A stretch of 64,000 nt of DNA from Verrucomicrobiia bacterium (GTDB lineage Bacteria; Verrucomicrobiota; Verrucomicrobiia; Limisphaerales; DASXHY01), in contig DASTXC010000123.1 in assembly GCA_035765675.1 (NCBI GenBank), positions 11,180 through 75,179 of the forward strand, in the 5' to 3' direction. The notes under the pieces are model-generated. The model was not told the origin of the DNA and did no database searches. It was given only the letters and a program-made list of their open reading frames with translations. This document shows positions 1,674-58,257 of the stretch, piece after piece. The position numbers were made by a program, and so were the translations under genes. How positions within the stretch are numbered: the first letter of the stretch is position 1; every line of letters begins with the position of its first letter.

Positions 1674-4403
1674 ATGAAAAGCACGATCCTCTGTCTTGCA
1701 GCGTTCGCGACCCTGACCCTTGCCAATGCTGCCAGCGTAACGAATTTGTTTCCGAACGGAGATTTTGAAGCGGGCGGCGCGGGTGATTGGGTGGAAGGCG
1801 GCTGTGATTTTTTCAGTTATCCCGACAGCGGCGGCAACTCCGGCGGCTATGGAATCATTGACGACACCTCGCCGTGCTGGGGCATCTGGGTGGGCGGCGA
1901 CACAACTCCGCTCTCGCTTGAATCGCTGGGACTGAAAGCCGGCCAGACCTACACCTTTGTTCAGGACATGAAGATCATTTCCGGAACGAGCATCGGTGGA
2001 ATCAAGATCGAATCCTGGACGACCAATAATCTCGGCGAGCCCATCTATGTGAGCGACAGCCATGACATGCGCCCGCTGTCCGGAACTGCCGAATGGGCGA
2101 CCTACACCTTTACTTACACGATCGCGCCGAACGCCACCGGACTGAAAGTCGTGCCGCTTTGGGGACCGGGTTCTGCGGTTGGCTTCGATAATCTTGGCGT
2201 GGTCGTGGTTGGCGCGACACCGGCGTCCGTCTCGATTACGAGCCCGACCAACAATCAAGTCGTCCATTCCGATTTCACAATCACTGCGACCGCGAGCGTC
2301 AGTCCCGGCACGATTACAAACGTCAATTTCTACGTGGACAATGTACTGGCAGGCACGGCCACGAATGCTCCGTTCGGTTATATCGCAACGAGCGTCGCGG
2401 TCGGCGCTCATGCGTTGAAAGCCGTCGCCATGGACAGTAACGGCAATTCCGCCACGTCGTCCGTCGTCAACGTCACTGTGACCGATGAATCTCCGACGGA
2501 GTTCGGCGCGTACGAGCCGTTCAATTACGATTCACTGGCGGATCAAACTCCCACGACCGCAACCGGATTCACCAGCAATTGGATTTGCGGAGCCGCCGGC
2601 ACAATTGTTCCGGGGTTGACGTATCCTGGCCTGGCGACGGCGAACGGCGCTTTGCAATCCGCCAGCTCGCATCAATTGACAAGTCTGGCGAGCGTGCCTT
2701 CGGGAATCGGAACGATCTGGGTGAGTTTTCTGTTCAAGCAGGTTGGCGACAACGGCGGCAATCGTGATGGCTTCGTGATCGAAGACGGCACCGGCAAGGG
2801 AATCATGTTTGCCTATTTCCAGAATCAAGCCGCGATTGGAAATCCGGCGATTGTGAACGTCAGCAGTTTCACGACGGTTGGGTCCACTTTGAGTCCGCAC
2901 AGCGCCACTGCTCAAACCTACAACGCGAACAATTTTTATGTGCTGAAGCTTGCCTACAGCGGCGGATCGCTGAGCAGCGTCGCCGTTTATTCCAATCCGA
3001 CTGCCGGCCAGGACACGGCACCTGCGCCGGACTTCACGGTCAGTTCGGGCTTGAGCGGCATCGGCCTTCCCAACTGGCTCGGCGTGGCTCATCAGGGCGC
3101 TGTCAGCATCACGGTCGATGAAGTGCGAGTCGGCAGCACGTTCGCCGATGTGGTGGGCGGAAATCTGAATCCGACGATTTCAACCACCTTGGCGCTTTCA
3201 ATTTCCGAGAGCAAAAAACTGAGTTGGAGCGGTTACAGCACGAATTATTATCAACCGCAAAAATCGTCCGACAACAGCAGTTGGACGGATGTGGGCGGAC
3301 TCATCTCCGGCACGAATTCGACCTCGGCTTATGATCTTGCGCCGGAGTCTTTTTATCAGGTTCTCGAAATTGGCCCGGTGCTTTCGGAACGGATCGTCGA
3401 TGGCGGTTTCGAAGTGGATGGCGGTTTGGACACCGCGTTCTATTGGAATGGATACGGAACTCAAAAGCCCATGCGCATCACTTCGGATTTCCACAGCGGG
3501 ACAGCGAGCATGTCTTTAATGGTGACCAATGTTGATCAAGCTGCGCAGACCTCCGATCTCCAACAGGACCTGCTCTACGCGGGCGACTCAGGAATCGTCG
3601 AAGGAAAAACTTACAGTCTTTCATTCTGGGCCAAGTCACTGGGCAAAAATCCCGCGGGCGGTTACGTGCAGCAATATCGCGTGGCGTGGTTGAAGACGGA
3701 TGGCGGCATTGTCGGAACGGTCGGCTGGACCGGTTTCACCAGCGCCACCGATAGCTGGACGCAAGTCAGCTCCGGTCCAGTCGTGGCTCCGGCGGGCGCG
3801 GTCAATGCCTTGATCGAAGTGTTTGTTGCGACCGGCGGAATCCTGAATGACTACGGCGGCGTGCTGGTCGATGATATGTCGTTGAGCAGCTTCGATCCGG
3901 GAAGCGTGATCAATGTATTGTCGCCCACAGTGGAATCGGGAGCGGCTTTCACAGCAACGGTGCAAACTGGCGGAACCACAGCCACGGCAGCGTCCGGGAA
4001 TGTTGCTTTCAAAATCAATGGCGTGGCACAAAGCTCCGTGCTTCTGACTGACGGCGTCGCAATCAGCGATCCCGCGATTGTTCCGGCCTCGTACACCGTC
4101 ACCGCCACGTATTCCGGTGACGCCACCTACATCGGCAGTTCCGCGACGCAAATTGTCGGTGACGGCGGCGGCGTAAATCCATCGCCAACCAATCTGGCGG
4201 CGACAGTTTCCGGTAATCAACTCACGCTCTCCTGGCCAGCGGATCACACAGGCTGGAGTTTGCAGACTCAGACCAATTCGACCAGCGCGGGCCTCAGCGC
4301 GAATTGGTTCGAAGTCAGCGGCTCCACCGTGACGAACAAAATGACGATCACGGTTGATCCCAAAAATCCGACGGTGTTTTACCGGCTGAAATACACTCCG
4401 TGA
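1674..4403 (+). CDS. Secreted multidomain surface protein (CBM4_9-like, Ig-like, ~215-aa YEPFNY module, C-terminal LSWP...FYRL domain)
   Basis: Signal peptide MKSTILCLAAFATLTLANA starts at ATG 1674 (the ORF track starts at 1629). NLFPNGDFEAGG and RIVDGGFEVDGG begin jelly-roll CBM-like domains. Ig-like unit SITSPTNNQVV...NFYVDNVLAG. Module AYEPFNY...FKQVGDNGGNR...VYSNPTAG...APAPDFTV. C-terminus GNQLTLSWPADHTGWSLQTQTN...FYRLKYTP. Confidence 0.85.
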   Translation: MKSTILCLAAFATLTLANAASVTNLFPNGDFEAGGAGDWVEGGCDFFSYPDSGGNSGGYGIIDDTSPCWGIWVGGDTTPLSLESLGLKAGQTYTFVQDMKIISGTSIGGIKIESWTTNNLGEPIYVSDSHDMRPLSGTAEWATYTFTYTIAPNATGLKVVPLWGPGSAVGFDNLGVVVVGATPASVSITSPTNNQVVHSDFTITATASVSPGTITNVNFYVDNVLAGTATNAPFGYIATSVAVGAHALKAVAMDSNGNSATSSVVNVTVTDESPTEFGAYEPFNYDSLADQTPTTATGFTSNWICGAAGTIVPGLTYPGLATANGALQSASSHQLTSLASVPSGIGTIWVSFLFKQVGDNGGNRDGFVIEDGTGKGIMFAYFQNQAAIGNPAIVNVSSFTTVGSTLSPHSATAQTYNANNFYVLKLAYSGGSLSSVAVYSNPTAGQDTAPAPDFTVSSGLSGIGLPNWLGVAHQGAVSITVDEVRVGSTFADVVGGNLNPTISTTLALSISESKKLSWSGYSTNYYQPQKSSDNSSWTDVGGLISGTNSTSAYDLAPESFYQVLEIGPVLSERIVDGGFEVDGGLDTAFYWNGYGTQKPMRITSDFHSGTASMSLMVTNVDQAAQTSDLQQDLLYAGDSGIVEGKTYSLSFWAKSLGKNPAGGYVQQYRVAWLKTDGGIVGTVGWTGFTSATDSWTQVSSGPVVAPAGAVNALIEVFVATGGILNDYGGVLVDDMSLSSFDPGSVINVLSPTVESGAAFTATVQTGGTTATAASGNVAFKINGVAQSSVLLTDGVAISDPAIVPASYTVTATYSGDATYIGSSATQIVGDGGGVNPSPTNLAATVSGNQLTLSWPADHTGWSLQTQTNSTSAGLSANWFEVSGSTVTNKMTITVDPKNPTVFYRLKYTP

Positions 4404-10436: not shown

Positions 10437-10461
10437 CGGAAGGACGAGTTACGCGAGTCCC
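10437..10461 (+). repeat. Repeat family D half-element CGGAAGGACGAGTTACGCGAGTCCC
   Basis: Near-identical 25-mers occur at 18778-18802 and, as a full palindromic version, inside ileS (15578-15643). Confidence 0.85.
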
Positions 10462-10529: not shown

Positions 10530-10588
10530 TCGCAAAACAGGAAAATAAAGTTGAGCCTGAAACGTGATTCGGAGTGCGGTTATTTGTG

Positions 10589-10656
10589 GCATGGGCGTCT
10601 CGCCCGTGCGGCTCTGGATTGGGAAAAGGCATCGCACAGGCGAGACGCCCGTGCCA
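10589..10656. repeat. Repeat family G inverted pair (GGCATGGGCGTCTCGCCCGTGCG / CGCACAGGCGAGACGCCCGTGCC)
   Basis: 23-nt arms at 10589-10611 and 10634-10656 are reverse complements with 2 mismatches. Each arm holds its own GGGCG-N3-CGCCC hairpin. Confidence 0.85.
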
Positions 10657-10689
10657 CTCAGCGGCTTAAATGAAATCGAATTTTACTGA

Positions 10690-14033: not shown

Positions 14034-16934
14034 TCAGCTCTTGGCCTGCTGCACTGCTTCCACGCAGCGACCGCAGATTGTCGGATGCTCCGCGTTCTGG
14101 CCGATGTCCGTTTCCCAATGCCAGCAGCGTTCGCATTTCTGGCCATCGGCTTTGCTCACCGTTGCGGTGACGACAGCTTCCGGAACTTCCGTCAGCGCGA
14201 CTTGCGAAACATTCAACAACTCTCGCAATGATTCGAGGTTCGCCTTCGCGTCGTTCAGCAGTGGCCCTGACCCGCTGATCGTCAGTTTCGCTTCCAAAGA
14301 TTTTCCGATTGATTTCGCCTGACGCTCTTTTTCCAAGGCCGGCAATGCAAGTTCGCGCAGAACGAAGAGACTCTTCCATGCTTCCGCTTCCGAAGACGAA
14401 AGTTTCAATTCGCCAGCCAGCCAGCCCGTCCGATGAATCGATTCCACTGTTTTGCCGGGAACAAATTCCCACGCCTCATCCGAGGTGTAAGCCAGGATTG
14501 GCGCGAGCATTTTGCAAAGGCCGGTCAGCAGACGATGCAACGCGGTCTGAGTCGAACGCCGACGATGCGAATTCGCCGCGTCCGTGTACATGCGATCCTT
14601 GATGACGTCGTGGTAGATCGACGAAAGTTCGACCGCGATGAATTGGCTGACCTTCTGATAAACGACGTGGAATTCAAACTTGTCGTATGCTTCGATGACT
14701 TCCTGTTCGAGCTTCGAAAACTCGGCGAGAATCCAGCGATCCAATCCGGTGAGTTGATCGTCGGCGACGGTGTGCTTTGCCGGATCGAAGTCGTAAAGAT
14801 TCGAAAGCTGATAGCGCAGCGCGTTGCGAATGCCGCGATAGGTCTCGCCGACTTTGTTGATGCGTTCTTCGCTGACAACAATGTCGTTGCGAAAATCCTG
14901 TGACGCCACCCAGAGCCGAACCACATCCGCGCCCCATTTCTTCACGTAGGCTTCAGCGGTCTGCGGTTTCTCGTAAGAACCTTGTTTGCTCTTGGAGATT
15001 TTTTCGCGATCGGCATCTACCATGAATCCGTGTGTCAGAACCGTCTTGAACGGCGCCGCGCCATTTCCAGCGAGCGACAGCAACAGCGAAGACTGAAACC
15101 AGCCGCGATGCTGATCCGAGCCTTCAAAATACATGTCGGCTTGAAACGGCTTTTCTGCTCCGGCGATTTCCTTTCGGCGCGCAATCACCGCGCGCGATGA
15201 AGAACCGGAATCAATCCACACGTCCAGCGTGTCGTTCGATTTTGCAACTGCGTCCGCGCCGTTCCAATCCGCGGGTTTCACGAGCGACCAAAGTTCAGTC
15301 ACGGATTTTTCAAACCACACGTTCGAGCCGTGTTGTTCGATTAATTTTGCCGTATTACGAACAACTTCAGCAGCGGCGGCACTCTCTAAAACCGGATCAG
15401 GCGTGGGACACCCGGTTGCATCGTAAAAAAATGGTATCGGCACGCCCCAGGTGCGCTGGCGGGAGATGCACCAGTCAGGACGCGTTTGCACTGCGCCTTT
15501 GATGCGATTCACGCCCCATTCGGGAATCCATTTCACGCGGTCGATTTCAGCAAGCGCGCGACCGCGGAATGTATCCGTCGGAGGGACGAGCTCTGAGAGT
15601 CCCTCACCGGTTTGGTCGGGGACTCGTGTAACTCGTCCCTCCGATTGATTGACATGATCAATTTTGATAAACCACTGATCCATCGCGCGGAAAATCACCG
15701 CCGTTTTGCTGCGCCAGCAATGCGGATAGCTGTGATGGTAATTCTCCTGATGCAATAATGCGTGGCGAACGCGCAGTTCATGCAGCACCGCTTCATTCGC
15801 ATCGCTCTTGCCGTGCTTTTCAAGAATGGATTTGCCGACCATCTCCGGCGGCATTTGCTGCTCGACTGGCAATTCGTTCGAATAAGCCAGCTTGCCGTCA
15901 TCATCGACCGGCGAATAAATCGGCAAACCGTTTTGGCGTCCAAGATTGTAATCGTCCAGACCGTGTCCGGGCGCGATGTGGACAAAGCCCGTTCCCGTGT
16001 CGCTCGTCACAAAATCCGCGGCAAAAGCTTTTCCGGTGCGATTGCAAAACGGATGTTGATATTGCAGCGCGGCGAGTTCTTCCATGGAAACCGGCGTTTC
16101 GGTGTAATTCGTCCAGCCACATTTCTCGGCCACGTTCGGCAACAATCCGCGGAACAGAATGAAGTTCTCATCGCCGACCGTTGCTTTCACATATTGCAAC
16201 TTCTCGTTGTAAGCCACAGCGAGATTCGCCGGCAAAGTCCAGGGCGTGGTGGTCCAGATCACCACGAACGTTTTCGGCTGGCCGACCACTTCGAACTTCA
16301 CAAACACGCTTTGGCTGACGTGATCCGCATACTCAACTTCAGCTTCAGCCAAAGCCGTGCGACACGGAATGCTCCAGTAAACCGGCTTCTTGCCGCGATA
16401 AACAAATCCCTGCGCGACGATGTCCGCGAACAAACGCAGTTCGTCCGCTTCGTATTCCTTGTTCAGCGTGAGATACGGATTTTCCCAATCGCCCAGCACG
16501 CCGAGCCGTTTGAATTGCTCGCGCTGGATGTCGATGTATTTGCGCGCGTAAGCTTCGCAGGCTTTGCGAATCGTCGCCGCGTCAGCACTCGTGTCGCCCG
16601 CTTTGCGCATGTCCTGCGAGACCTTGAATTCGATCGGTAAACCGTGGCAATCCCAGCCCGGAATGTAAGGCGCATCTTTGCCGCGCAGCGTCTGATACTT
16701 GACGATGATGTCCTTGAGAATCTTGTTCAGCGCGGTGCCGATATGGACGTCGCCGTTCGCGAAAGGCGGTCCGTCGTGCAGAACGAATTTCGCTTCGCCG
16801 GCGCGTTGCGCGCGGATCTTTCCGTAGAGATCGGTTGCCTGCCATTTTTCCAATCGCTCCGGTTCCCGCGTGACGAGGTCGGCCTTCATCGGGAAATCGG
16901 TGCGAGGCAGATTCAATGTGTCTTTGTAGTCCAT
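14034..16934 (-). CDS. ileS: Isoleucine--tRNA ligase
   Basis: MDYKDTLNLPRTDFPMKA start (the ORF-track start at 16979 is an extension). HIGH-type motif PFANGDVHIGTALNK, KISKSK (KMSKS), YPHCWR, and C-terminal zinc knuckles CERCWHW...CGRC. Confidence 0.95.
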   Translation of the reverse strand: MDYKDTLNLPRTDFPMKADLVTREPERLEKWQATDLYGKIRAQRAGEAKFVLHDGPPFANGDVHIGTALNKILKDIIVKYQTLRGKDAPYIPGWDCHGLPIEFKVSQDMRKAGDTSADAATIRKACEAYARKYIDIQREQFKRLGVLGDWENPYLTLNKEYEADELRLFADIVAQGFVYRGKKPVYWSIPCRTALAEAEVEYADHVSQSVFVKFEVVGQPKTFVVIWTTTPWTLPANLAVAYNEKLQYVKATVGDENFILFRGLLPNVAEKCGWTNYTETPVSMEELAALQYQHPFCNRTGKAFAADFVTSDTGTGFVHIAPGHGLDDYNLGRQNGLPIYSPVDDDGKLAYSNELPVEQQMPPEMVGKSILEKHGKSDANEAVLHELRVRHALLHQENYHHSYPHCWRSKTAVIFRAMDQWFIKIDHVNQSEGRVTRVPDQTGEGLSELVPPTDTFRGRALAEIDRVKWIPEWGVNRIKGAVQTRPDWCISRQRTWGVPIPFFYDATGCPTPDPVLESAAAAEVVRNTAKLIEQHGSNVWFEKSVTELWSLVKPADWNGADAVAKSNDTLDVWIDSGSSSRAVIARRKEIAGAEKPFQADMYFEGSDQHRGWFQSSLLLSLAGNGAAPFKTVLTHGFMVDADREKISKSKQGSYEKPQTAEAYVKKWGADVVRLWVASQDFRNDIVVSEERINKVGETYRGIRNALRYQLSNLYDFDPAKHTVADDQLTGLDRWILAEFSKLEQEVIEAYDKFEFHVVYQKVSQFIAVELSSIYHDVIKDRMYTDAANSHRRRSTQTALHRLLTGLCKMLAPILAYTSDEAWEFVPGKTVESIHRTGWLAGELKLSSSEAEAWKSLFVLRELALPALEKERQAKSIGKSLEAKLTISGSGPLLNDAKANLESLRELLNVSQVALTEVPEAVVTATVSKADGQKCERCWHWETDIGQNAEHPTICGRCVEAVQQAKS
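15578..15643. repeat. 66-nt palindromic family-D element embedded in frame in ileS
   Basis: CGGAGGGACGAG (15578-15589) and CTCGTCCCTCCG (15632-15643) are perfect reverse complements. There is an inner 7-bp stem GGGACTC/GAGTCCC. The element is 22 codons and encodes EGRVTRVPDQTGEGLSELVPP. Confidence 0.85.
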
Positions 16935-16999
16935 TGCAAAAAGAGGGCGCAAAGTAACAGCGGCTTCCGAGGGTGTCAACGAACGCGGGAACGCGGTAT

Positions 17000-17067
17000 C
17001 GGAGCGCGGACTTCAGTCCGCGCGTGCCGAGTAATTGCGAATCTCGCGGACTGAAGTCCGCGCTCCG
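17000..17067. repeat. Repeat family A inverted pair (CGGAGCGCGGACTTCAGTCCGCG x2, perfect 23-nt arms)
   Basis: Arms at 17000-17022 and 17045-17067 are exact reverse complements with a 22-nt spacer. Each arm contains the GCGGACT-TC-AGTCCGC hairpin. Located between the mtnA stop and the ileS start. Confidence 0.95.
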
Positions 17068-17095
17068 AAGCGGAATCGTGCGAATCAGGAATGCG

Positions 17096-18777: not shown

Positions 18778-18802
18778 CGGAAGGACGAGTTACACGAGTG
18801 CC
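18778..18802 (+). repeat. Repeat family D half-element CGGAAGGACGAGTTACACGAGTGCC
   Basis: 23/25 identical to 10437-10461. Confidence 0.85.
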
Positions 18803-18845: not shown

Positions 18846-18875
18846 AACCACGGATGGACACAAATGGACATGGAT
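18846..18875 (+). repeat. Solo copy of family B arm (AACCACGGATGGACACAAATGGACATGGAT)
   Basis: Related to the 30-nt terminal inverted repeats of the element at 58040-58257 (AACCACGGATGAAAACCGATAAACACGGAT). Confidence 0.7.
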
Positions 18876-19228: not shown

Positions 19229-19331
19229 ATTCACCAGATTCGGACGCGGCATACTCTGAAGGCAAACCGTTCTTTGCGCAACTCCGTTTTGCAGTTTCAT
19301 CCGCGACACTGCACTGAAATTTCATTTTCGT

Positions 19332-19403
19332 CGGAGCGCGGGCTTCAGTCCGCGAGTTTCACGCCGCTATTTCCGGAACACGCGGACTGAAGTCCGCGCT
19401 CCG
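19332..19403. repeat. Repeat family A inverted pair, second locus
   Basis: CGGAGCGCGGGCTTCAGTCCGCG (19332-19354, 1 mismatch) and CGCGGACTGAAGTCCGCGCTCCG (19381-19403), with a 26-nt spacer. Confidence 0.9.
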
Positions 19404-19470
19404 ATTTGTCAGCACGTACCCATTGAACCCTCTTCGCCCATGGTCTCACCTTCCCCATTCGTTTCGCTGC

Positions 19471-58039: not shown

Positions 58040-58257
58040 AACCACGGATGAAAACCGATAAACACGGATCAGAACTCATCTCCTGTATCGAATTGGAGCG
58101 CGGCATTTATGCCGCTTTAGTTTGAAATGCATCAGAAGCTCTGAGCTTTTCCGTCCGCCGATCGTGAAGCAGGCTGAAGCCCGCGCTTCCCATTCGAGAG
58201 AAGATTCCACGGACAGCTTTGGCTTTTATCCGTGTTTATCGGTGTTCATCCGTGGTT
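58040..58257. mobile_element. MITE-like 218-bp element with 30-nt terminal inverted repeats (family B) enclosing degenerate family-A hairpins
   Basis: AACCACGGATGAAAACCGATAAACACGGAT (58040-58069) versus ATCCGTGTTTATCGGTGTTCATCCGTGGTT (58228-58257): reverse complements with 1 mismatch. The interior has GGAGCGCGGCATTTATGCCGC and GAAGCAGGCTGAAGCCCGCGCTTCC. There is no ORF. Confidence 0.6.

Follow-up and report, generated by a model that had tools for sequence, protein, structure and literature searches.

Classical REP/REPIN elements are extragenic, and Y1 transposases of the IS200/IS605 kind act on single-stranded DNA hairpins, leaving no target-site duplication (TSD). The RPEs of Rickettsia are genus-specific families of about 100-150 bp, their hosts being obligate intracellular bacteria with reduced genomes, and no cognate RAYT is known to be flanked by RPEs. 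MITEs include, among others, Nezha in cyanobacteria. REP/REPIN-RAYT systems have been described from Escherichia and Pseudomonas (Nunvar 2010, PMC2817692; Bertels & Rainey 2011, PMC3116915; Ton-Hoang 2012; structure 4ER8), RPEs are palindromic repeats inserted in frame into conserved essential proteins (Ogata et al. 2000, as cited in PMC3733652, where RPE-4 and RPE-6 are given as CGTC-tagged), and a report on Coxiella burnetii mentions in-frame MITE insertions (PMC5896051). Intragenic REPs tagged with GTAG or CGTC and encoding 20-30 residues were described by Di Nocera, De Gregorio & Rocco (2013, BMC Genomics 14:522, PMC3733652), mostly as dimers with variable spacers, in genes for DNA ligase, for repair and for tRNA synthetases among others, and in largest number in the verrucomicrobium Opitutus terrae. 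According to the same report, residues 467-488 of the 965-aa IleS of Erythrobacter litoralis (ELI_13550) derive from a 22-residue CGTC-1 dimer, and recB of two Xanthomonas species contains different REPs at about the same site.

The palindrome that we analyzed also lies in frame in ileS, and its kind is real but has been known since 2013, the present case being a further example; the opinion in an earlier note on this DNA that such insertions had not been described for this kind of organism has to be abandoned, as the 2013 report covers both O. terrae and an IleS. When we asked whether the E. litoralis insertion occupies the same loop, a chimeric 93-aa query retrieved only unrelated short IleS fragments, and a degenerate DNA pattern for E. 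litoralis IleS had no match in genome contigs.

The window, a 64-kb stretch of DNA from an uncultured verrucomicrobium, contains ileS on the minus strand at 14034-16934, stop codon included, with the initial methionine at 16934-16932. The element-bearing ORF is intact, and its 966-aa product is a 100% match to a database protein with tRNA-synt_1, Anticodon_1 and zf-FPG_IleRS domains, with a HIGH-type motif, HIGT, at 16734-16745 and a KMSKS-type motif, KISKS, at 14988-15002. The palindrome, a REP dimer resembling a REPIN, has a 65-nt core at 15579-15643, or 67 nt (15578-15644) if a closing T/A pair is included, and reads T-CGGAGGGACGAG-TTACAC-GAGTCCC-cgaccaaaccggtga-GGGACTC-TCAGAG-CTCGTCCCTCCG-A on the coding strand. 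The perfect 12-bp outer stem, the 6x6 internal loop, the 7-bp inner stem and the 15-nt loop are as listed in the earlier note, but the length of 66 nt given there needs correction, so that the element does not amount to exactly 22 codons. In coding orientation (minus strand throughout), the element begins with a canonical arm, CGGAGGGACGAGTTACACGAGTCCC (15619-15643), which matches the consensus of its family, termed family D, exactly and is read as (S)EGRVTRVP; it is followed by the variable spacer, or apical loop, cgaccaaaccggtga (15604-15618), read as DQTGE, and by a variant arm, GGGACTCTCAGAGCTCGTCCCTCCG (15579-15603), read as GLSELVPP. The peptide predicted at the element site is VPDQTGEGLSELVPPTDTFR.

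The internal loop exists because TCAGAG replaces the consensus in the 3′ arm. Comparison of the consensus with the ileS frame reveals that the consensus GTGTAA would place a TAA in that frame, which the TCAGAG variant avoids, and all seven orthologous ileS copies with the element have [G/T]C[A/G]GAG at this position. In addition, every indel that distinguishes these seven copies is a multiple of three; to judge by the aligned sequences, the variant arm and the pattern of indels reflect selection for an open frame. At the RNA level, the element folds with -55.2 kcal/mol over 106 nt (z = -7.5, with 0 of 200 shuffles as good), and at the DNA level with -24.4 kcal/mol (z = -6.5). A search of Rfam matched only a tRNA at the gathering threshold and, at E <= 1, yielded one chance hairpin match, mir-m107-1, whose 25 bits fall below its gathering score of 83. 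An AlphaFold2 model of IleS built from a 59-sequence alignment was poor (mean pLDDT 53, pTM 0.39), and in it residues 429-453 form a coil with pLDDT <50, as does much of the protein.

Protein and DNA alignments with 120 and 76 orthologues, respectively, delimit the whole extra segment as codons V428-T455 (15570-15653, minus strand), VNQS-EGRVTRVPDQTGEGLSELVPP-TDT, located between QWFIKIDH and FRxxALAEIDRVKWIP in place of a two-residue loop. The window ileS has 28 codons there against 2 in empty alleles (H-[D/E/N/Q/A/H]-x-F-R), which makes 26 extra codons. Empty two-residue sites were found in 31 of the 120 close IleS proteins and at 28 of the 76 genome loci, i.e. in roughly a third of the close orthologues; they predominate among the more distant orthologues retrieved; the closest relatives, P0003 and P0004 (84% identity), have no insert either. 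Occupied sites contain 18-36 extra residues encoded by at least eight different palindromic families, some of which begin with GTAG, and in L125, L143, L172 and P0002 the site is filled by long inserts that are not palindromic. IleS length varies from 927 to 999 aa among proteins at 76-85% identity, and the number of residues at the insertion point ranges between 0 and about 45 in solved and orthologous IleRS. As the earlier note had stated, characterized enzymes can be shorter here, with no loop in 8C9E (QWFASIK-DFRE) and about 10 residues in 8WNF; the alignment that it proposed reveals both presence and absence of the insert, with many empty orthologues, and the peptide is not conserved over unrelated DNA in distant taxa.

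The junctions suggest that the site has a longer history. The left one, GTCAATCAA (V-N-Q; 15645-15653, minus strand), compared between the window, L118 and L196-L204, has GT(A/C) right after the His codon, where GTAG-headed elements begin in other orthologues, and may be what is left of an older GTAG...CTAC element; the right one, CGGATACA, part of T-D-T (15570-15577, minus strand), ends in ...TAC plus 1 nt directly before TTC(F), as in GTAG...CTAC alleles. The D insertion in ileS is itself old, as gauged from its distribution, because it is common to at least seven lineages. In two near-identical genome pairs whose members contain different families, recombination tracts end at the IleS site. 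For the D allele, we also considered whether local recombination had spread it and rejected this, since the ratio of local to global synonymous divergence in D-D comparisons (0.93) is like that in the other classes (0.88-0.91).

Within the window, family D is present at three sites. The recurrences of the 25-mer that the earlier note had reported at 10437-10461 and 18778-18802 (both on the plus strand and intergenic) are there with two mismatches each, while shuffled sequences are expected to yield 0.00; these are solo arms without a palindrome, unlike the copy in ileS. Beyond the window the 25-mer is massively repeated: a 17-nt core was found at more than 115 loci among the matches listed, nearly all of them in Verrucomicrobiota/Limisphaerales/Pedosphaera MAGs, and the matches listed together with the window comprise 84 dimers and 49 solo arms (133 sites). 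Family D is, on the evidence of these matches, widespread in Limisphaerales-type Verrucomicrobiota. A logo of 226 arms defines a 26-nt unit, Y-CGGAGGGACGAG-YTAYRC-GAGTCCC, with sharp edges and no conservation outside them. Its head is Y-CGGAG, a terminal GTAG/GTRG or CGTC tag such as marks the classical REP superfamilies is absent, and tetranucleotides resembling GTAA, GTAG or ATAG are confined to the middle of the arm. The usual form is an inverted pair of arms around a spacer that varies in length and sequence; solo arms and direct arm arrays also occur (L015, L045, L102). Some arm variants are specific to one genome and recur at several of its loci, for example GGGGC/GCCCC in the MAG to which L024, L074 and L118 belong and GGGCC/GGCCC in SIBF01.

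Other genes are hosts as well. Of 78 dimers, 31 by a strict rule and 41 by a lenient one are located inside ORFs, an intragenic share of about 40-53% compared with 57-68% for random positions. The lenient rule admitted false positives, namely L113, in which the element is just upstream of trpA, and L055, in which the ORF is antisense, and was replaced by a codon-usage frame check. Hosts confirmed by Pfam as real genes encode ArgS, LigA, Mfd and aminotransferases; intragenic copies are read in all three frames, and at the LigA zinc-finger site the element is present in two different frames. The in-frame, stop-free insertion into an essential gene that had been claimed for ileS is evident, and the occurrence of the same DNA between genes and in other frames of other proteins identifies it as a DNA element rather than a protein module. 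The length of the element modulo 3 is uninformative as a mark of genic copies, because the boundaries defined by the arms are not those of the inserted unit. Flanking direct repeats at the 78 dimers were no commoner than in the control, i.e. TSDs were not detected.

A candidate source of mobility was found in related genomes. At L048, a 163-aa protein (1724-2212, minus strand) has family-D arms on both sides and matches the NCBIfam model NF047646, ‘REP-associated tyrosine transposase’, with E = 2.7e-21 and 76 bits, the curated cut-off being 80; it also matches the TnpA-REP structure 4ER8 (E = 6.6e-5) and, weakly, Pfam Y1_Tnp, and contains the HUH motif as MPDHVHFF and the tyrosine motif as YELENPVKA. 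Its six closest relatives (69-100% identity; L205-L209 and L211, in six MAGs) have D arms no more than about 5-30 nt from both gene ends, in contrast to RAYTs at 55% identity or less, which have no flanking D arms. The association of one RAYT clade with family-D arms in six related genomes places the element in the REP/REPIN type, and the lack of TSDs is compatible with the action of a RAYT on single-stranded hairpins. The association rests on these related genomes, as tblastn with the L048 and L079 RAYTs and an E. coli YafM sequence detected no RAYT in the window. For the other families at the IleS site, SCRS-type arms around RAYTs in L228 and L223 are only hints of similar links.

Taken together, we consider it probable (at roughly 0.8) that the ileS palindrome is a non-autonomous element of the REP/REPIN type, serviced by a RAYT and translated as a tolerated extra loop of IleS. 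Two inverted 26-nt REP-like arms around a free spacer would constitute the mobile unit, and a dedicated RAYT of the HUH/Y1, IS200/IS605 kind would serve family D in trans. One copy would have inserted into the segment that separates the QWFIKID strand from the FRxxALAEI helix, a loop whose length varies naturally, probably by nesting within an older GTAG...CTAC palindrome already present at the site. Translation of the insert would then add a loop of 26 residues without disabling IleS, and the insert would persist because its length is divisible by three and it contains no stop codon.

This reading does not by itself account for the way in which the arms evolve. In the seven orthologous ileS copies, the arms show a diversity of 0.057, with no difference between codon positions, while adjacent synonymous third positions reach 0.32-0.36 and the spacer 0.24; the arms thus vary about 6-fold less than neighboring synonymous sites, which implies that they are held at the DNA level. 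In L118, a paired change, GGGGCGAG/CTCGCCCC, keeps the stem. Such conservation is unlike that of a dead, merely tolerated insert, so function or homogenization must act too, and the earlier interpretation as a tolerated repeat, while correct as to the tolerated in-frame insertion, is to that extent incomplete. The low arm diversity, the stem-preserving change and the very stable RNA hairpin (-55 kcal/mol) would all be expected if the hairpin were selected by the host, either as a protein-binding or supercoiling site in DNA or as a structure in the ileS mRNA that modulates its translation or decay. We nevertheless regard this as unlikely, given that a third of close orthologues have an empty site and others a palindrome from one of at least eight unrelated families, that the placement of copies with respect to genes follows no consistent pattern, and that arm variants specific to a genome and present at several of its loci fit concerted evolution or re-copying equally well. 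It partly overlaps the preferred explanation, as an element could originate by transposition and be retained for its function.

Equal conservation of third and of first and second codon positions in the arms argues, on the other hand, against an IleS-specific accessory protein loop in which the palindromic nature of the DNA would be incidental. The loop is naturally variable, it measures 10 residues in the H. pylori-type IleRS 8WNF, and the four non-palindromic inserts mentioned above would agree with such a view; however, frame-independent reuse of the same DNA in other proteins, along with its intergenic copies, effectively refutes it, and with the insert missing from the closest relatives we assign it very little credence. 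The small size and the inverted-repeat architecture, and the in-frame MITEs noted in the Coxiella report, could also bring to mind a classical MITE, i.e. a deletion derivative of a DDE insertion sequence that moves by cut-and-paste and has terminal inverted repeats and TSDs. Yet TSDs are not above control, the spacer is conserved neither in length nor in sequence, solo arms and direct arrays exist, and the gene flanked by the arms codes for a Y1/RAYT and not for a DDE transposase, all of which makes a MITE origin extremely improbable.

Beyond the RAYT-serviced element itself, we tentatively suggest a broader possibility, that the Limisphaerales-type REPIN-RAYT system treats coding DNA almost like intergenic DNA (some 40% of copies being intragenic), that its arms are actively maintained within essential genes, and that the IleS position acts as a “cassette” site. 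Arm upkeep may then be due to hairpin selection at the host level or to homogenization driven by the RAYT or by conversion, and REP families may succeed each other inside retained GTA...TAC termini and subsequently be reshuffled among lineages through homologous recombination. If true, this would provide a natural system for studying REPIN turnover, and any function, against the neutral clock of synonymous sites. The coding hosts already supply an internal neutral standard, and the slow evolution of the arms relative to it bears on whether REPINs are parasites, are re-copied or are useful to the host. The present finding shows that selfish palindromes in essential proteins, similar to those of Rickettsia, are common in a free-living, large-genome lineage from soil and freshwater, and one intragenic palindrome family is tied to a specific RAYT clade. 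In practice, such inserts inflate and diversify the lengths of housekeeping markers, and can lead to errors when Verrucomicrobiota MAGs are annotated or their sequences aligned and placed in trees.

Comparison of family D with the known systems shows likenesses to each. With in-frame MITEs it shares the status of small non-autonomous inverted-repeat elements able to add peptide segments; in MITEs, however, the internal sequence is conserved and the terminal inverted repeats are related to insertion sequences, while family D consists of a 26-nt arm and a free spacer, with no TSD and with a Y1 RAYT. The likeness to RPEs drawn in the earlier note concerns behavior, i.e. in-frame insertion into conserved proteins (IleS, ArgS, LigA, Mfd and aminotransferases) with the frame kept open, and probably does not extend to membership in an RPE family: six related genomes have a cognate RAYT between these arms, and the hosts are free-living soil and freshwater Verrucomicrobiota. 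By host phylum, RAYT and lack of the CGTC end reported for RPE-4 and RPE-6, family D is probably distinct from the Rickettsia RPEs. It resembles REP/REPIN-RAYT systems in the short many-copy unit, the inverted pairs that form a long hairpin, the RAYT flanked by its own repeats (for family D, in related MAGs only), the absence of TSDs and the long-term, apparently vertical persistence at orthologous sites; it differs in having no GTAG head, in a spacer far more variable than that of Pseudomonas REPINs and, as opposed to classical REP/REPIN elements, in being commonly intragenic and, as predicted, translated. Like the REPs of Di Nocera and colleagues, these are short palindromic dimers with variable spacers in housekeeping genes, IleS included. 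In contrast to those REPs, the order is Limisphaerales/Pedosphaera-like and not Opitutales, the head is Y-CGGAG instead of a terminal GTAG/CGTC, the intragenic share (about 40-53% of dimers) is much higher, at least eight families replace one another at a single codon position of IleS in close relatives, and for family D the conservation of the arms has been measured against synonymous sites.

The ileS gene of the window (14034-16934, minus strand) encodes a 966-aa protein that contains both a HIGT and a KISKS motif and gives a hit to the C-terminal zinc-finger domain zf-FPG_IleRS. The imperfect palindrome within it, at 15579-15643, reads T-CGGAGGGACGAG-TTACAC-GAGTCCC-(15 nt)-GGGACTC-TCAGAG-CTCGTCCCTCCG-A on the coding strand, and inspection of the sequence confirmed the stems and loops described in the earlier note; it spans 65 nt (67 nt if the closing T/A pair is counted) rather than the 66 nt given there. 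Its predicted folding energy is -55.2 kcal/mol as RNA (z = -7.5 versus shuffled sequence) and -24.4 kcal/mol as DNA (z = -6.5). The 25-mer arm, a member of the REP-like family D, does recur at 10437 and 18778, as solo copies that each differ at two positions, where chance alone would give 0.00 matches. Read in the frame of ileS, the consensus right arm would give GGA CTC GTG TAA, with an in-frame stop; the ileS copies have [G/T]C[A/G]GAG where GTG TAA would be placed, which removes the stop and at the same time produces the 6x6 internal loop. This stop-avoiding arm variant, together with the fact that indels among seven orthologous ileS copies of D are all multiples of three, argues that the segment is translated. 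Among the 120 closest orthologues, only 6 have anything comparable to an 8-residue segment elsewhere in the window's IleS, PVLESAAA (15372-15395).

These 120 proteins are 927-999 aa long, at 76-85% identity, and the insertion site lies exactly between QWFIKIDH and FRxxALAEIDRVKWIP. The presence-absence alignment that had been proposed revealed an empty, two-residue site (H-D-K-F-R and similar) in 31 of the 120 proteins and in 28 of 76 genome loci. Empty sites make up the majority among more distant orthologues (62-75% identity), so that the empty state is probably ancestral. The window has 28 codons at this site, i.e. 26 more than empty alleles; of the solved IleRS structures, 8C9E has 0 residues there and 8WNF about 10, in line with the earlier note's statement that characterised enzymes are shorter in this segment. 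Family D accounts for only some of the filled alleles: across orthologues this position is taken by at least eight different palindromic DNA families, with hairpins of -31 to -53 kcal/mol, and many of these alleles start with GTAG directly after the His codon and end with CTAC. D alleles retain GT(A/C)... directly after His and ...TAC plus 1 nt directly before Phe, at the positions of the GTAG...CTAC termini of the other alleles, a hint that family D may have inserted into, or taken the place of, a GTAG-type element that was there before. The state of the site is highly homoplastic on a neighbour-joining tree, and within each of two pairs of nearly identical genomes the families at the site differ; both pairs display a tract of extra synonymous divergence ending at the site, indicating that its alleles are exchanged by homologous recombination. 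A second hot spot, after R-x-E-L-x-H (alignment columns 698-725, approximately window 15140-15180), is empty in the window and carries inserts of 9-27 residues in 17/120 orthologues, several of them from the palindromic families of the main site (e.g. GQASRLP..., RSTASQTS...DAVERVP, GTSCCSSQTSEAAQQ). As a separate observation, two genomes (loci L196 and L197) are ~99% identical over dnaA-glnB-ileS and completely different right after the ileS stop (from ~4438), where one has an HNH_2 gene and a PemK toxin gene and the other unrelated ORFs, marking the 3′ end of ileS as an island boundary.

In the species-representative genome collection, at least 115 loci match the 17-nt core of the D arm, and among the matches listed almost all are from Verrucomicrobiota, Limisphaerales or Pedosphaera MAGs. 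The arms at these listed loci and in the window form 84 dimers and 49 solos, inverted pairs being commonest, with short direct arrays in addition; the dimer spacer (~10-60 nt) is conserved neither in length nor in sequence. A logo of 226 arms gives a unit of 26 nt with sharp boundaries, Y-CGGAGGGACGAG-YTAYRC-GAGTCCC, which lacks a GTAG or CGTC terminus and outside which nothing is conserved; target-site duplications at dimers did not exceed the control. The window holds further repeats, including intergenic near-perfect inverted pairs of a REPIN-like family, TCGGAG-CGCGGAC-TTCA-GTCCGCG (16999-17068 and 19331-19404), which has the TCGGAG head and GGAC...GTCC mini-stem in common with family D, and one copy of which lies ~65 nt upstream of the ileS start codon. 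An intergenic GTGG-headed REP dimer (GTGGCATGGGCGTCTCGCCCGTGC...) is found at 10586-10657, and in other genomes sequence of this kind lies in frame in IleS, where it reads GQASRLS...TPVL. The motif AACCACGGATGGACAC(N2)ATGRACAYGGAT is repeated at 18846-18875, 58040-58069 and 58228-58257, the latter two copies forming an inverted pair ~190 nt apart, and similar motifs directly adjoin D arms at two related loci (L016 and L094).

Intragenic insertion is not confined to IleS. Of the listed dimers with enough flank, 41/78 lie in a long stop-free ORF (random positions, 68%), and 31/78 (40%, versus 57%) are genic under a stricter rule, which demands that codon usage favour that frame over the others in both flanks. 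Pfam searches confirmed ArgS, LigA, Mfd and two class-III aminotransferases as hosts; the element lies within their domains or between them. ArgS, the second aminoacyl-tRNA synthetase host besides IleS, has its class-I catalytic domain divided into two Pfam stretches by a dimer (SEGRVTRVPASSGEKSVGLSELVPP; L054, 3771-3844). In the NAD-dependent DNA ligase LigA the dimer lies between the OB fold and the zinc finger, at the same place in the C4 zinc-finger region of several genomes, and its frames (GGTSYTSP... in L034 and L082, RRDELHES... in L109, L061 and L019) and spacers differ. The D arm is read in all three frames (EGRVTRVP, RRDELHES, GGTSYTSP), as befits a DNA element rather than a protein module.

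When all fetched loci were searched by tblastn with a RAYT (REP-associated tyrosine transposase) sequence, a RAYT-like ORF adjoining a D arm came up at locus L048. Its 163-aa product contains HUH and Tyr motifs and matches NCBIfam NF047646, "REP-associated tyrosine transposase" (E = 2.7e-21), scoring 76 bits where the curated cut-off is 80; it also matches the E. coli TnpA-REP of known structure (4ER8; E = 6.6e-5) and, weakly, Pfam Y1_Tnp. A D dimer lies upstream of the gene and a D-arm cluster downstream, and when the genome collection was scanned with the protein, D arms were seen within ~5-30 nt of both gene ends in each of its six closest relatives (69-100% identity, six MAGs). A RAYT gene flanked by its own repeats, the arrangement that defines REP-RAYT systems, is termed a REPtron, and the D-arm-flanked genes have this arrangement. 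RAYTs at most 55% identical to that of L048 had no D arms, except for two weak 6-mismatch matches upstream in L219; a RAYT-like gene in L079 (4920-5513; NF047646, E = 6e-13) has none alongside, and those of L228 and L223 are bordered by GGGACGAGCTGCCGCTCGTCCC-type arms, a family which, where located in IleS, reads as GTSCRSSQTSEAAQQRGP. No RAYT was found within the 64-kb window. We consider it probable (about 0.8) that the ileS palindrome is a REPIN-like non-autonomous element, which a RAYT would mobilise in trans on single-stranded hairpin DNA, selection filtering its insertions to a loop of IleS that tolerates indels, where the element would be translated as an extra loop, presumably at the protein surface.

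The seven orthologous ileS copies (the window, L118 and L200-L204) are of one heterodimer type with homologous spacers, and therefore descend from one old insertion. Pairwise diversity among them is 0.057 in the arms, alike at all three codon positions, and 0.24 in the spacer, compared with 0.32-0.36 at flanking third positions and 0.06-0.07 at flanking first and second positions; the gene-wide synonymous third-position difference is 0.35, and comparison of local with gene-wide synonymous positions gave no signal of hitch-hiking. The arms are thus conserved as DNA, diverging about six-fold less than synonymous sites, which protein selection cannot explain. The earlier interpretation captured the behaviour of the element, and was incomplete as to the cause of this conservation. 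Selection on the hairpin or on a recognition sequence is one candidate cause; homogenisation against the genome's own family is another, hinted at by arm variants common to several loci of one MAG. Specifically, the partner-arm variant GGGCC...GGCCC recurs across loci of SIBF01 (L011, L038, L064, L072), and GGGGC...GCCCC across those of CAWDPX01 (L024, L074, L118), including the orthologous ileS copy in L118, which suggests concerted evolution or lineage-specific master copies.

Our literature search yielded no publication describing such elements for Limisphaerales or Pedosphaera. The in-frame, translated-looking insertion resembles Rickettsia palindromic elements in behaviour, as had been proposed, while membership in their families is not supported. 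Nor is the phenomenon undescribed, as the earlier note had supposed for this kind of organism: the closest earlier description is that of Di Nocera et al. 2013 (PMC3733652), who found GTAG- and CGTC-tagged REPs within genes, Opitutus terrae, a verrucomicrobium, and R. conorii having the most, with hosts including tRNA synthetases (the E. litoralis IleS has a 22-residue dimer) and with recB of two Xanthomonas species carrying different REPs at roughly one and the same site. Compared with those intragenic REPs, family D is distinguished by its Y-CGGAG head and a very high intragenic share, and the present case adds a multi-family hot spot in IleS and a measurement of arm conservation.
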